Shown piece by piece: positions 3,203 through 8,455 of a stretch of DNA of 8,455 nucleotides. The notes beneath the pieces are model-generated. The model had not been told where the DNA came from, searched no databases, and saw nothing but the letters and a program-made list of their open reading frames with translations. The DNA is from a virus (Duplodnaviria > Heunggongvirae > Uroviricota > Caudoviricetes). The position numbers were made by a program, and so were the translations under genes. The stretch lies in IMG/VR virus record IMGVR_UViG_2648501730_000017. One strand, given 5' to 3'. The first letter of the stretch is position 1, and each line of letters begins with the position of its first letter.

Positions 3203-4128
3203 AAATCCACCCCATAAATCCAGTCAGTGTTTGTCAGGTCCAGTTTTGATTTTCCGGCTGTCACTCCAGCCTGTTGCTTGTTACGGTTGATTTCGAGTTG
3301 GGTCCACTTGTCACGGAGTTTGGCCGGACTTAGCACGTTACCGGACCAGAAGTTGTCCTGGCATGCCCAGCGGAACAGCACGCACATGTCGCGGTGGTTA
3401 CGTCCGTCACGTTCACGCATCAGGCGGATATCGTTAGCCCACCCTGCAAAATTCGGTTTTCTGGCTGATGGCGCGATGGTCTTCACCATGTCAAACATCC
3501 ACTCTGCGGCGGTCAGGTCTTCTGCTGTCCCCCACTTGCTGCCGCTCTGAATTGCAGCATCCGGTTTCACCACAGGAAGATCGTTTTCTGGTTGGTCAGA
3601 GGATTCGCCAGAATTCTCGGACGAAAAAGGTTTTATATTGTCTTTTGTTAGTTTGTCTTTTGTGTTTACCTGATTCGGGTAAACGCCTTTACCTGATTTG
3701 GGTAAACTTTTTTTACCTGATTCAGGTAAATTTACCTCTTTCAGGTAAACTTTATTTTTCTTACCTGATTCGGGTAATGTTGACCATTCACTGACCACAT
3801 TATTAATGCCGGTATTCCGCCCGCTCTGAATAAAAATCCCACGCTTTACCAGAACACTTTTTGCAGCAGAACACTTGTGCGGCAATATCCCGGTTAATTC
3901 GGAAAGTTGCTCGTTGCTAACCCAATCCAGTTTTTTATTAAAGCCATATGTTTTGCGCATGACAGCCAGAAAGACCAGAAGCTGGTGCTGTGTTAATCCG
4001 GCCAGCATCACAGCTTCCAGCAACTCATTTGCAATGCGCGTATAACCATCATCGAGATCTGCCACGCGCGGCTCCTTTTGTGCCGCATCCGGCACTGGAA
4101 AATTGAATATCTCAGCAGTGTTTGCCAT
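3199..4128 (-). CDS. O: Lambda-type replication initiator O (309 aa): N-terminal iteron-binding domain diverged from lambda, C-terminal P-interacting domain lambda-like
   Basis: C-terminal half ...ESSDQPENDL.VVKPDAAIQSGSKWGTAEDLTAAEWMFDMVKTIAPSARKPNFAGWANDIRLMRERDGRNHRDMCVLFRWACQDNFWSGNVLSPAKLRDKWTQLEINRNKQQAGVTA...LDLTNTDWIYGVDL matches lambda O as recalled. N-terminus from the internal Met (MANTAEIFNF...VADLDDGY) aligns with the lambda O start and has a GGGAGG ribosome-binding site 5 nt upstream; the 339-aa track ORF is an upstream extension. Confidence 0.85.
   Translation of the reverse strand: MANTAEIFNFPVPDAAQKEPRVADLDDGYTRIANELLEAVMLAGLTQHQLLVFLAVMRKTYGFNKKLDWVSNEQLSELTGILPHKCSAAKSVLVKRGIFIQSGRNTGINNVVSEWSTLPESGKKNKVYLKEVNLPESGKKSLPKSGKGVYPNQVNTKDKLTKDNIKPFSSENSGESSDQPENDLPVVKPDAAIQSGSKWGTAEDLTAAEWMFDMVKTIAPSARKPNFAGWANDIRLMRERDGRNHRDMCVLFRWACQDNFWSGNVLSPAKLRDKWTQLEINRNKQQAGVTAGKSKLDLTNTDWIYGVDL
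3667..3779. repeat. Replication origin iterons: five ~18-bp direct repeats inside O, flanked by an AT-rich stretch (about 3620-3666)
   Basis: Read directly: TACCTGATTCGGGTAAAC (3667-3684), TACCTGATTTGGGTAAAC (3690-3707), TACCTGATTCAGGTAAAT (3714-3731), TACCTCTTTCAGGTAAAC (3733-3750), TACCTGATTCGGGTAATG (3762-3779). Each has TACC...GGTA internal dyad symmetry. Location inside O next to an AT-rich tract mirrors lambda ori. Confidence 0.8.
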
Positions 4129-4214: not shown

Positions 4215-4754
4215 TCATATCGCCCCCAGCATGGTAGTAACCATCGCCATCAATGGACCAGCCAGATCTGGGTCCACACGAAACATCGACACAATACCTT
4301 CACTAATTTCCTTCAGTTTCTGGTGGCGTGGTGCGTTGAGAATGACAGCCTGTTTTGCCTCACTGAGTTCCTTTTCCATTTCAGCCAACCTAGCCATGAA
4401 GCTATCCTGCTCAACCAGGTAACCGCGATATTCCAGCGGTAGTACCGCCAGAATTGCCGGGGTCAGTTCACGCACGTTATTTCGGTATTTTTCAGAATCG
4501 AATTTGTTATCGAGGAAGCGGAACAGCTTCTGGCGTGCACGGCTGACATCATCAGGGAAATCGATGGTGCCGCCGCCCTGCTCCCGATACTCATTCACAA
4601 TGAGTGTGGCAACGACATCCTGATTATCTACAGCCGACCAGGCGCGGACGGCATCACGGATTTTTTCGTGGCCTGGCACCTGTTTTGTTTGAGAACGATT
4701 TATCACCGCAGTCGGGCTAAATCCGCTAGTCTGTTGGTATGTAAGTGGTTGCAT
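4215..4754 (-). CDS. YdaT-like protein (about 179 aa) in the cII position; probable CII functional analogue
   Basis: Sits between the cro-like gene and O where lambda has cII, but is about twice the length of lambda CII. GGAG ribosome-binding site 7 nt upstream of the ATG. Family assignment is from recalled Rac / CP-933P ydaS-ydaT arrangements, not from a search. Confidence 0.5.
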   Translation of the reverse strand: MQPLTYQQTSGFSPTAVINRSQTKQVPGHEKIRDAVRAWSAVDNQDVVATLIVNEYREQGGGTIDFPDDVSRARQKLFRFLDNKFDSEKYRNNVRELTPAILAVLPLEYRGYLVEQDSFMARLAEMEKELSEAKQAVILNAPRHQKLKEISEGIVSMFRVDPDLAGPLMAMVTTMLGAI

Positions 4755-4798
4755 AATTGACTCCTTTAGTTTGAATTGACTGTTAAGTTGATTGCTTA

Positions 4799-4811
4799 TT
4801 GTTAAAGAGCG
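4799..4811 (-). promoter_or_regulatory. boxA-like element in the nutR position, just downstream of the cro-like stop
   Basis: Minus-strand sequence CGCTCTTTAACAATAAGCAATCA contains GCTCTTTAACAAT, matching the E. coli rrn boxA (TGCTCTTTAACAATTTATCA, as recalled) at 13 consecutive positions; placement matches lambda nutR. Confidence 0.5.
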
Positions 4812-4823
4812 TGAAATGGAAAT

Positions 4824-5054
4824 TTAAGCTGCGTTCTTTTCGGTGTGTGGAAACAACTTCGGAAGATCCGGGCGAATCTGGTATGCCTTCACTACTCCAC
4901 CAGTAGCCGTAACAATGCTGCCGACATGTTCAGGGGATACCTTTGCTTTGTTGTGAAGCCACTTATAGACGGCCTGCTGTGAAACTTCGCAAGCAGCGCC
5001 CAGTTTCTTTTGTGAACCAACGATATTGATCGCTGTTTTGATAGCTGGGTTCAT
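4824..5054 (-). CDS. Cro-like small HTH regulator (76 aa), first gene of the rightward early operon
   Basis: Small protein transcribed divergently from the cI-like repressor; GGAGG ribosome-binding site 5 nt upstream of the ATG; the segment QKKLGAACEVSQQAVYKWL is helix-turn-helix-like. Confidence 0.6.
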   Translation of the reverse strand: MNPAIKTAINIVGSQKKLGAACEVSQQAVYKWLHNKAKVSPEHVGSIVTATGGVVKAYQIRPDLPKLFPHTEKNAA

Positions 5055-5081: not shown

Positions 5082-5110
5082 AGATTAAAACTATGGTTGT
5101 TTTTAGTCAA
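5082..5110 (-). promoter_or_regulatory. pR-like promoter: -35 TTGACT, 17-nt spacer, -10 TAATCT, with a 17-bp operator filling the spacer
   Basis: Reverse complement of 5082-5110 reads TTGACT-AAAAACAACCATAGTTT-TAATCT, about 25 nt upstream of the cro-like ATG. Confidence 0.5.
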
Positions 5111-5158: not shown

Positions 5159-5848
5159 ATGAAAACAACACTCTCAGAAAGACTTAAAGAAGCCAGATTA
5201 GCGCGAGGCCTTACACAAAAGGCGCTTGGGGATTTGGTCGGGGTTAGCCAGGCTGCTATTCAGAAAATCGAAACAGGGAAAGCTAATCAAACAACTAAAA
5301 TCGTGGAGATCGCGAACGCTTTGGGTGTGCGCGCAGAATGGTTATCTTCTGGCGTTGGAAATATGTCAGACAGTACAGTGCAACCAATACAATCAACTGT
5401 CAGCCATTCCAAATACTTCAAGATTGACGTTCTTGATATAGAAGTCAGTGCTGGGCCGGGAGTCATCAACCGTGAGTTTGTAGAAGTTCTACGCTCGGTT
5501 GAGTACTCGTTTGACGATGCTCGTCACATGTTCGATGGTAGGAAGGCGGAAAATATCCGCATCATTAACGTGCGTGGTGACAGCATGTCAGGAACGATCG
5601 AACCAGGTGATCTGCTGTTCGTTGATATCACAGTTAAATCTTTCGACGGTGATGGTATCTATGCGTTTCTGTACGACGACACAGCCCATGTAAAGCGCCT
5701 GCAAATGATGAAGGATAAGCTGCTGGTCATCTCTGATAACAAAAGCTACTCACCGTGGGACCCGATCGAGAAAGACGAGATGAACCGGGTGTTCATCTTC
5801 GGTAAGGTTATTGGGAGCATGCCGCAGACATATAGGAAGCATGGGTAG
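5159..5848 (+). CDS. cI-like prophage repressor (229 aa): N-terminal HTH-XRE domain plus C-terminal S24 LexA-like autopeptidase domain
   Basis: From the internal Met: MKTTLSERLKEARLARGLTQKALGDLVGVSQAAIQKIETGK (HTH), then GDSMSGTIEPGDLLFVD with a downstream HVKRL Lys, the Ser/Lys dyad of S24 peptidases. No Shine-Dalgarno before 5159, and a weak TTGATG / TACATT promoter would start transcription near the ATG (leaderless, as lambda cI from pRM). The 5093 start would overlap operator 1. Confidence 0.8.
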   Translation: MKTTLSERLKEARLARGLTQKALGDLVGVSQAAIQKIETGKANQTTKIVEIANALGVRAEWLSSGVGNMSDSTVQPIQSTVSHSKYFKIDVLDIEVSAGPGVINREFVEVLRSVEYSFDDARHMFDGRKAENIRIINVRGDSMSGTIEPGDLLFVDITVKSFDGDGIYAFLYDDTAHVKRLQMMKDKLLVISDNKSYSPWDPIEKDEMNRVFIFGKVIGSMPQTYRKHG

Positions 5849-5969: not shown

Positions 5970-5996
5970 CCCGGTCACCGTGCCGGGTTTTCTTTT
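5970..5996 (+). terminator. Putative intrinsic terminator about 120 nt downstream of the cI-like gene
   Basis: CCCGG (5970-5974) pairs with CCGGG (5983-5987), followed by TTTTCTTTT. Confidence 0.45.
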
Positions 5997-6091
5997 GCCC
6001 TCCCCTCATCACACACACCGTTAAAAAAACCACCATAACCTCGCTTCAGTTATCGCTATGCGATTCAAGTCACAAAATAAATCCATCCTAA

Positions 6092-6166
6092 ATACAACCA
6101 GTTATATCTAAAACAACCAATAAAACAACTTTTGTTGTTGACGATAAAACAACTATGGTTTTAAAT
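6092..6166 (+). promoter_or_regulatory. OL/pL-like operator-promoter cluster driving the kil-gam-bet operon
   Basis: Repeated AAAACAAC motifs (ACAACCA 6094-6100; AAAACAACCA 6110-6119; AAAACAAC-TTTT-GTTGTTG 6122-6140). Promoter TTGACG (6138-6143), 17-nt spacer, TTAAAT (6161-6166); the spacer carries AAAACAACTATGGTTTT (6146-6162), near-identical to the operator in the pR spacer. Confidence 0.5.
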
Positions 6167-6443
6167 AAGTTCATCGCAACAACACAACGATACGGCAACT
6201 ACCTGATTCACCGTTGCGATGACCGCTTAGATCCGCAGTTTGAATTTCAGCAGGCTTCGGGGAGTGCGAGGGGTGAAACGGACGCGTGAACGTCGGTGTG
6301 ACCAGCTGAAATTAACTCAACATTTCATACCTTAGTCGCTTCAACGAGGCGGCTTAGTTATGACAACCGGCGGCCATCCACCGCCTGAATACGCGCAGAA
6401 GTCTCTATATGTTCAGCAGCCCAGCTTACGGGCAGGAGTTTTT

Positions 6444-6650
6444 ATGGTTCATCAACATTATGGAACGCAGACCGTTAATCGAGGTGCGGTCATGCCAGGA
6501 ATGCTGGTCAAACACAAAGATGGTACCTGGACTGCATCAGCTAATTTACGCGGACGGCTTTATCTGCATCGCGGCATCGAGCGCACTTATACCCGTGATT
6601 TGCTCGTGGAAGTTTTTCTCGACGGACGCGGTAACGGCCTGAATCACTAA
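6444..6650 (+). CDS. Small protein (68 aa from this start) in the kil position; possibly a Kil-like host-killing / division-inhibitor protein, identity unverified
   Basis: AGGAG ribosome-binding site 5 nt upstream of ATG 6444; alternative in-frame starts at 6492 (GAGGTG upstream) and 6501. The ORF ends 76 nt before gam, where lambda has kil. I cannot reliably recall a homologue. Confidence 0.3.
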
Positions 6651-7027: not shown

Positions 7028-8455
7028 ATGAGTACAGCACTCGCAACGCTGGCAGGGAAGCTGGCTGAACGTGTCGGCATGGATTCTGTCGACCCACAGG
7101 AACTGATCACCACTCTTCGCCAGACGGCATTTAAAGGTGATGCCAGCGATGCGCAGTTCATCGCATTGCTGATCGTCGCCAACCAGTACGGCCTTAATCC
7201 GTGGACGAAAGAAATTTACGCCTTCCCTGATAAGCAGAACGGCATTGTTCCGGTGGTGGGCGTTGATGGCTGGTCCCGCATCATCAATGAAAACCAGCAG
7301 TTTGATGGCATGAACTTTGAGCAGGACAATGAATCCTGTACATGCCGGATTTACCGCAAGGACCGTAATCATCCGATCTGCGTTACCGAATGGATGGAGT
7401 TGCACGACAAGCGAAAAGCAGAACTCTGGCGAGTAGAAAAGCTAGGGGATTTACCTGATGTCACTTTTGAAGAGGCCTGCCTAAGATGGCTTGAGGAAAA
7501 AGCTGATAAAAAATCTCTCGATTCAGATAAAAGCCGGATTGAGTTCTGGCTTGAACATTTTGAGGGTATAAGGCTTAAAGATATCTCGGAGGCAAAGATT
7601 TACTCTGCTGTAAGCAGAATGCATAACAGAAAGACGAAAGAAATATGGAAACAGAAAGTTCAGGCCGCCATCAGGAAAGGTAAAGAACCGCCTGTTTATG
7701 AACCAAAGCCAGTATCAACTCAGACAAAGGCAAAGCATCTTGCCATGATAAAGGCCATTCTCCGTGCTGCAGAACGCGACTGGAAGTGGCTGGAAAAAGC
7801 GCCTGTCATCAAGATACCAGCGGTCAGAAACAAGCGAGTCAGATGGCTGGAAAAGGAGGAAGCAAAACGCCTTATTGATGAGTGCCCCGAACCACTGAAA
7901 TCTGTCGTCAAGTTTGCGCTGGCAACTGGTCTGAGAAAGTCGAACATCATAAATCTGGAATGGCAACAAATCGACATGCAGCGACGAGTTGCCTGGGTGA
8001 ATCCAGAAGAGAGCAAATCAAACCGCGCCATTGGTGTGGCGCTGAACGATACCGCCTGTAAAGTGTTGCGTGATCAAATAGGCAAGCATCACAAATGGGT
8101 GTTTGTACATACCAAGGCGGCTAAGCGAGCAGATGGAACATCAACGCCTGCGGTCAGGAAGATGCGCATCGACAGCAAGACATCATGGCTATCAGCTTGT
8201 CGTCGTGCAGGAATTGAAGATTTCCGTTTCCATGACCTCAGACACACCTGGGCAAGCTGGCTGATTCAGTCAGGCGTCCCATTATCAGTGCTTCAGGAAA
8301 TGGGCGGATGGGAGTCCATAGAAATGGTTCGTAGGTATGCTCACCTTGCGCCTAATCATTTGACAGAGCATGCGAGGAAAATAGACGACATTTTTGGTGA
8401 TAATGTCCCAAATATGTCCCACTCTGGAATTATGGAGGATATAAAGAAGGCGTAA
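7028..8455 (+). CDS. In-frame fusion: Bet (lambda Red-beta) residues 1-123 joined to a tyrosine integrase (IntD / P21-family like) lacking roughly its first 35 residues; probable deletion product that removed the bet 3' end, exo, xis and the int 5' end
   Basis: Residues 1-123 ([122 protein letters not shown]) match lambda Bet as recalled. From about nt 7397 the protein switches to integrase sequence (ELHDK.KAE.WRV.KLG..PD.TFE.AC.RWLEEKA.KKSLD.DKSRI.FWL..F...), with the catalytic Arg in TGLRKSN, HDLRHTW and the Tyr in MVRRYAHL. Gam stop to bet start geometry (aggtataaaacggATG) is as in lambda. Confidence 0.8.

Follow-up and report, generated by a model that had tools for sequence, protein, structure and literature searches.

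The boxA RNA signal normally acts together with the phage N protein. Lambdoid phages that lack N, such as HK022 and HK639, are already known. A perfect rrn-type boxA is also said, in work of Berg et al. in 1989, to suppress Rho-dependent termination by itself. Consensus boxA has high affinity for NusB–NusE without N (PMC5725501), and a stand-alone boxA less than 50 nt from the start codon represses suhB (Baniulyte et al. 2017, PMC5725501).

The locus described here carries a boxA in the nutR position of a phage lineage that lacks N. Judged from its sequence, this orphan boxA is with moderate probability a vestigial half nutR relic, any effect of which would be at most accessory. In the literature searched, no paper was found on early antitermination of this phage group or on PhiR phages, and no stand-alone rrn-perfect boxA was found in the nutR slot of an N-less phage with a complete deposited genome and a named host.

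The early region and its boxA

The window, which is the whole 8455-base stretch of DNA that was analysed, covers the early region of a lambdoid prophage and is 99.2–100% identical throughout to the complete phage PhiR34_1 (PV340559), one deletion excepted. The 2.7 kb missing relative to PhiR34_1 comprise exo, orf63, orf61, a traR-like gene, and the rest up to int, where xis would be expected too. A long ORF (7028–8455) is a bet::int fusion with its junction near 7396–7398, and the deletion that fuses bet to int makes this copy a defective prophage. PhiR34_1 itself is 44.6 kb long, has E. coli K-12 MG1655 as its recorded host, and is ordered int ... exo-bet-gam-kil / pL / cI / pR-cro-cII-O-P-ren-emrE-ybcK-ybcL-ybcM-ybcN-ninE-ybcO-rusA-ylcG-Q-nmpC-S-R-Rz, the order of an intact version of the K-12 cryptic prophage DLP12. 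Synteny and near-identity with an intact phage place the window in the DLP12 family. The lineage is Bievrevirus-like in genus and has neither an N gene nor nutL.

Leftward transcription begins at pL (6138–6166, plus strand), which is read from the sequence as TTGACG, a 17-nt spacer, and TTAAAT inside OL, and is conserved in 9 cro-family loci. A 270-nt leader (6174–6443, plus) without N gene or boxA separates pL from kil (6444–6650, plus; phrog_294, E = 1.3e-37), the first recognisable gene of the pL operon. The preliminary description had placed a pL-like promoter at about 6166 and an ORF in the kil position at 6444, in agreement with a −10 element at 6161–6166 and with the kil start. The cI-type repressor gene (5159–5848, plus) encodes HTH and S24 peptidase domains by Pfam, with the start codon assigned as in phage IdasGreatGrand. 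An intrinsic terminator is predicted after it (5970–5997, plus).

Rightward transcription runs on the minus strand from pR (5082–5110), read as TTGACT (5110–5105), a 17-nt spacer, and TAATCT (5087–5082), and embedded in OR operators whose repeats reappear at OL. The first gene is a cro of the YdaS family (4824–5054, minus; 76 aa; PF15943, E = 4e-17). It is followed by a 69-nt intergenic spacer (4755–4823, minus) and by a cII analogue of the YdaT family (4215–4754, minus; 179 aa; PF06254, E = 8.5e-30), the first gene downstream of boxA. Beyond cII, the minus-strand operon continues in the window with O, P, ren, emrE, and ybcK. The ren ORF (2295–2504, minus) encodes 69 aa compared with ~100 aa in PhiR34_1, consistent with its earlier description as a remnant. 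Within O, repeated TTTACCTGATT-type units at 3660–3776 are presumably ori iterons and are the source of spurious Rfam matches.

The spacer between cro and cII, an unstructured RNA, holds an exact copy of boxA, CGCTCTTTAACAA (4799–4811, minus), identified by reading the sequence. It starts 15 nt past the cro stop and ends 45 nt ahead of the cII ATG. Downstream of it the minus strand continues as TAAGCAATCA, and the Shine–Dalgarno sequence of cII lies ~30 nt 3' of boxA. The preliminary description gave this 13-mer as a 13/13 match to the rrn boxA core just after a cro-like stop. Site, strand, and sequence are as quoted, but the quoted 13-mer matches rrn at 12/13, its first C being the lambda-type base, whereas the 13-mer one base along, GCTCTTTAACAAT, matches the E. 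coli rrn leader boxA at 13/13. The E. coli rrn leader sequence, TGCTCTTTAACAAT, occurs at 100% identity with a median of 7 copies per genome across all 5426 complete E. coli genomes. On the early transcript the site also conforms to CGCTCTT(T)A, the boxA consensus of the lambda type. It is likewise a perfect match, within 50 nt upstream of a start codon, to the published functional consensus GYTCTTTAANA (PMC5725501).

The element is unique in the window even when up to 2 mismatches are allowed, and no second boxA matching at 10/12 or better was found on either strand. The AT-richness of the spacer, and nothing else, speaks for a chance match. Given the base composition of the window, the number of exact copies expected by chance is 3.2e-4 for the window as a whole and 1e-6 for the 69-nt spacer, and the position is that of boxA in homologous nutR sites. 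On these two grounds a coincidence within the AT-rich spacer, which the preliminary description had allowed for, is rejected as wholly improbable. The 13-mer is a genuine boxA.

The spacer offers one candidate for a DNA-level role that would account for the conservation, in which the opposite strand would form part of a pRE-type promoter or YdaT operator. In prophage CP-933P, the interval between the genes ydaS and ydaT contains pRE; downstream of this promoter, at the ydaS 3' end, YdaT gives a footprint on a TTGATT-N6-AATCAA repeat (PMC8630535, PMC9986795). In the window, A[AG]TCAA occurs three times between boxA and the start of cII (4757–4795, minus); these repeats read TTGACT-N6-TTGATT on the opposite strand and adjoin the complement of boxA there. 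By analogy with CP-933P, they could serve as a YdaT/pRE site. As an explanation of boxA itself this is very unlikely. The published YdaT motif matches the spacer only at 3 mismatches, which is chance level, and the identical 14-mer is found both in rrn and in relatives whose cII is of another type, a distribution better explained by an RNA signal.

At the RNA level, the short distance to cII raises the prospect of regulation of the suhB type. Nus assembly on boxA would loop the leader and cut translation of cII (ydaT), with or without Rho termination, and would tune the choice between lysis and lysogeny. Both the perfect GYTCTTTAANA less than 50 nt from a start codon, the criterion established for suhB (PMC5725501), and the placement of the Shine–Dalgarno sequence past boxA fit this proposal. 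It is nevertheless unlikely, as other YdaT-type cII genes (L011, L015, 4A7, Perceval, and phi80) have no upstream boxA and the same position serves antitermination in N-using phages.

Partners of boxA and the pL leader

In the window, boxA stands without the partners that define a nut site. The 91-nt stretch that spans boxA and continues past it has essentially no structure, folding at only −4.1 kcal/mol (z = +0.41) with an unpaired centroid and without a boxB hairpin. This upholds the earlier statement that no convincing boxB occurs within the next 40 nt. The upstream boxB hairpin and GU-rich boxC of the rrn type are likewise absent around boxA, by sequence and by fold. A mismatch-tolerant scan of the leftward pL leader found no boxA and hence no nutL, again as the preliminary description had it.

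The same description reported no N-sized ORF between pL and kil, and the searches for N bear this out. Leaving aside an upstream extension of kil in the same frame, the pL leader has only two plus-strand ORFs of at least 20 aa, one of 44 aa and one of 31 aa. The small leader ORFs have no match in Pfam or PHROGs, whereas kil is matched in PHROGs. As a positive control, phrog_271 (anti-termination protein N-like) recognises the N ORFs of relatives L014, L016, L017, and L019 with E values of 8e-17 to 0.014. With eight N/Nun queries (lambda N, HK022 Nun, phi80 'N', and five N ORFs from relatives), tblastn against the window and all 44.6 kb of PhiR34_1 gave nothing better than E = 0.3. When the window and PhiR34_1, translated in six frames, were searched with an N-family HMM built from six of these N proteins (Nun and phi80 'N' left out), no match was better than E = 2.

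A scan for arginine-rich motifs, aimed at a hidden N, had one standout, the 31-aa ORF at 6240–6335 (plus; MNFSRLRGVRGVKRTRERRCDQLK...). Its N-like arginine-rich stretch reads RLRGVRGVKRTRERRC, and the ORF is annotated as a gene in one phage, IdasGreatGrand. An ordinary N/nut system could be present with an N that is hard to recognise, encoded either by this ORF or by a co-resident prophage. The ORF was rejected as N on several counts. It starts with TTG and has no Shine–Dalgarno sequence; variants L022 and L026 carry 1-nt indels, and a stop/sense polymorphism falls at 6333; substitutions number 7, 4, and 5 at codon positions 1, 2, and 3, without third-position bias; and neither PHROG nor Pfam matches it. 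The frameshifting indels, the polymorphism, and the flat codon-position pattern indicate that the ORF is not coding. The strongest objection is the lack of a boxB to which any N could bind, and an ordinary N/nut system is highly improbable, marginally more so than a DNA-level signal.

The put RNA of HK022 is the main known mechanism that dispenses with N. A covariance model (R1) of 21 putL sites and HK022 putR scored true sites at 44–97 bits, including HK022 putL at 95.8, HK639 putL at 91.2, and HK022 putR at 44.4 bits. With filters off and E ≤ 10, it returned nothing in the window and only noise in PhiR34_1 (L222). The two-stem put fold with its GAACGG...GGCGGG...CGGCAAT core is absent from the window. 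All Rfam families, searched at E ≤ 10, gave spurious matches only, none of them near boxA or in the pL leader. In a viral contig, L196 (~1200–1290), put stem I (GTCGAACGGCGCGAC...CATGCGTCGG) is joined directly to a consensus boxA, CGCTCTTTAACAATCTGG, an arrangement resembling a put/nut hybrid leader.

The pL leader has features of its own. The 270-nt sequence is unannotated, is present in 2222 of the 5426 complete E. coli genomes (41%), and occurs in phages of several immunity types. Within it, an 85-nt element (6236–6320) folds into two hairpins with a long closing stem (−27.3 kcal/mol, z = −2.2), and the longest invariant run among 46 unique variants, of 26 columns (6286–6310), falls inside this element. 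These 46 variants show 0 compensatory pairs and wobble-compatible single changes only, their divergence being too low to prove structure. The element matches neither the put model, nor the phi80-type leader HMM, nor Rfam. The leader precedes an operon with strong terminators, since the pL strand of PhiR34_1 has two strong intrinsic ones, after exo and after orf61 (2599–2577 and 2002–1984), and a possible cis-acting role is therefore worth considering.

The leader also contains a block, 6323–6391, that is common to phi80, HK639, HK225, and Enterobacter prophages. It consists of a hairpin (6323–6385) followed by an invariant UUAUGACAACCGGCGGCCAUCCACCG. The stem covaries between phages as AGUCGC/GCGGCU, GAGUCA/UGGCUC, and GGCAGA/UCUGCC. 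In the other phages the block comes after a strong tL1 terminator, which is missing in the window.

The pL leaders of the phi80 type (2270–2530 in L004, which is phi80; also L009, L011, L012, and L297) carry a boxA-like TGCTTTTTAACAA, perfect in L012, followed by ~200 nt of GC-rich RNA. Compared by nhmmer, the pL leader of the window and the phi80-type boxA leader gave no significant match, the best being boxA itself. The phi80-type leader is 74–95% conserved, yet each locus follows it with a different first gene. The conserved antitermination determinant of phi80-like phages may therefore be the leader RNA and not the putative N.

The cro–cII slot and the origin of the orphan boxA

Homologous cro loci were drawn from 11 genomes of other Enterobacterales and from 80 viral contigs. 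The viral set reduced to 53 distinct sequences of cro with its downstream DNA, for a total of ~60 distinct loci. The slot between cro and cII takes several states among them. In N/nut loci (L013, L014, L016, L017, L019, L224–L227, L229, L232–L235, L238, and L239), boxA is followed 5–10 nt later by a hairpin, the cro–cII gap is 99–158 nt, and the pL side has a boxA with the same boxB and an N ORF. A second state, found in most viral loci, in L009–L012 and L015, and in phages 4A7, Perceval, and phi80, has no boxA, no N, and a cro–cII gap of 24–41 nt. In a third (L299), putR fills the slot and putL follows pL; its cI–cro DNA is 82% identical to that of the window, and its cII is of the YdaT type. 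A boxA with nothing behind it, in a gap of 69 nt, occurs among the ~60 loci in the lineage of the window only. In homologues boxA starts 9–26 nt past cro, compared with 15 nt in the window, which makes the site positionally homologous to bona fide nutR sites.

The related pair L297/L298 combines a boxA and a GNRA-loop hairpin after cro with a pL leader of the phi80 type. The hairpin, GGCUGA-GGAA/GAAA-UCAGCC, stands 3' of boxA, and the two together occupy 3749–3795. A second copy of the boxA–hairpin unit was not found at pL, nor was an N detectable within 7 kb.

L297 is the nearest relative of the window that bears boxA, and the comparison of the two locates a breakpoint. Homology of 79% extends from cI across cro and stops at 4798, immediately 3' of boxA. 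In a MAFFT alignment with five full nutR regions, a gap of ~57 columns opens right after boxA, and the RBS-proximal tail aligns weakly. Phages with different immunity types (4A7, 4C10, 1W, 3W, D2, and Perceval), in turn, have the pL leader in common with the window from 6174, approximately the transcription start, and the cII gene in common from its ATG. 4A7 and Perceval have a different cro, a cro–cII gap of 24–30 nt, and no boxA. The shared leader, the shared cII, and the end of L297 homology at boxA together define an exchangeable immunity cassette, with the pL start at one end and boxA at the other. Since boxA forms the right-hand border of this cassette in an N-less backbone, it is called a vestigial half nut site.

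By this account, the cassette OL/pL–cI–OR/pR–cro–boxA was probably imported from an N-using phage. Its boxA would be the 5' half of an N-type nutR without the boxB hairpin. The sequence downstream of boxA (RBS, YdaT-type cII, O, and P) and that downstream of the pL start would belong to the N-less backbone. One point counts against a relic: it is somewhat unlikely that a random joint would keep a complete boxA with the breakpoint 0–8 nt away.

The preliminary description assumed that the rightward operon needs antitermination, a premise that the sequence does not support. A scan for intrinsic terminators on the pR strand of PhiR34_1 from cro to Q found no strong one. The untranslated cro–cII gap is 69 nt, compared with 99–158 nt in N-using relatives, in which it houses the tR1-type Rho entry region, and this shortening would have removed most of the untranslated RNA available for Rho loading. 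The short gap, the lack of a strong intrinsic terminator before Q, and the existence of boxA-less sisters with identical downstream genes (cII-O-P) make the operon seemingly independent of boxA. It is plausible that the pR operon, 8.5 kb long, is N-independent and needs no contribution from boxA.

Whether or not it is needed, boxA is expected to be recognised. The RNA fits the rrn consensus, so NusB–NusE(S10) very probably still binds it on the nascent pR transcript, with an effect that would be accessory and not essential. The lone boxA is termed vestigial, which may understate its activity, given the Rho suppression reportedly exerted by the rrn type. Recurrence of boxA-like elements without a recognisable N in relatives (L012, phi80-type pL leaders, and L297/L298) also hints that boxA is able to work without N.

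With a functional, rrn-like antitermination, RNA polymerase would become resistant to Rho without N as it transcribes the long operon cII-O-P-ren-emrE-ybcK...Q, which morons interrupt. The 13/13 rrn core suits such a role, as does the position of boxA at the head of an operon with several untranslated gaps of 150–240 nt. PhiR34_1 has neither N nor put, yet was deposited as a complete phage with a recorded host, and the recurrence in relatives points the same way. This proposal is possible but doubtful, since boxC and the upstream boxB hairpin are lacking, boxA is missing from sister phages that share the downstream genes, pL has none although its operon holds the strong terminators, and the arrangement is confined to one lineage. 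A more elaborate form, which is more tentative again, has the orphan boxA as a working N-independent Nus loading site on the right and the 85-nt two-hairpin leader RNA as a new cis element on the left. If true, this would be a third strategy of early antitermination in lambdoid phages beside N/nut and put. The early rightward operon would then be protected or tuned by the host ribosomal antitermination machinery alone, in a phage family that over a quarter of E. coli genomes carry.

The preliminary description left the choice between a non-N antitermination mechanism and the relic of a lost N system. The relic is favoured by the pattern of the slot, by the breakpoint shared with L297, and by the boxA-less sisters, while the main known non-N mechanism, put RNA, is absent. 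The relic is thus the better supported of the two, and the element is of modest interest unless it has Nus-dependent activity.

Distribution and likeness to known systems

The cro–boxA–ydaT junction is present in 1515 of the 5426 complete E. coli genomes (28%), and 1463 of these 1515 copies share an identity of at least 99%. One junction variant that was examined carries a 12-nt insertion 3' of an intact boxA. A junction so young and uniform gives no power to see decay of boxA or purifying selection, and a young relic and a selected element look alike. If only a relic, boxA marks an immunity-cassette exchange with its breakpoint at boxA, and a lineage turning N-independent. If active, it is a natural test case for a lone boxA on an mRNA and bears on the expression of cargo genes (emrE, ybcK–M, and Q) in a prophage of 28–41% of sequenced E. 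coli.

The locus resembles several described systems in part. In HK022 and HK639, which are N-less lambdoid phages, putL and putR take up the two corresponding places, one past pL and the other between cro and cII, and the relative with 82% identity in cI–cro has both; the put model, in contrast, finds nothing in the window or PhiR34_1. The putative nutL leader of phi80 belongs to a related group with a YdaT-type cII, the shared block that follows tL1, a boxA-like sequence, and no demonstrable lambda-type N. It differs in that its boxA-like sequence is at pL and not at pR and is followed by ~200 nt of conserved, structured leader, the HMM of which misses the window.

The boxA of the suhB 5'-UTR is likewise a stand-alone GYTCTTTAANA less than 50 nt from a start codon, without N or boxB (PMC5725501). 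That boxA represses its gene and is conserved across genera, whereas the boxA of the window is limited to one young lineage and has the ancestry of a nut site. The boxA of E. coli rrn leaders and spacers, where the Nus/SuhB complex acts, is identical over GCTCTTTAACAAT and is of the type reported to bind NusB–NusE without N. The boxA of the window differs by lacking the flanking rrn boxB and boxC and by its placement on a phage mRNA directly upstream of a translated gene. In comparison with the lambda-type nutR, the window lacks the boxB hairpin, N, and nutL, and its downstream untranslated stretch is cut to 45 nt, but it has the same position after cro, the same boxA consensus, and a homologous flanking cro gene.
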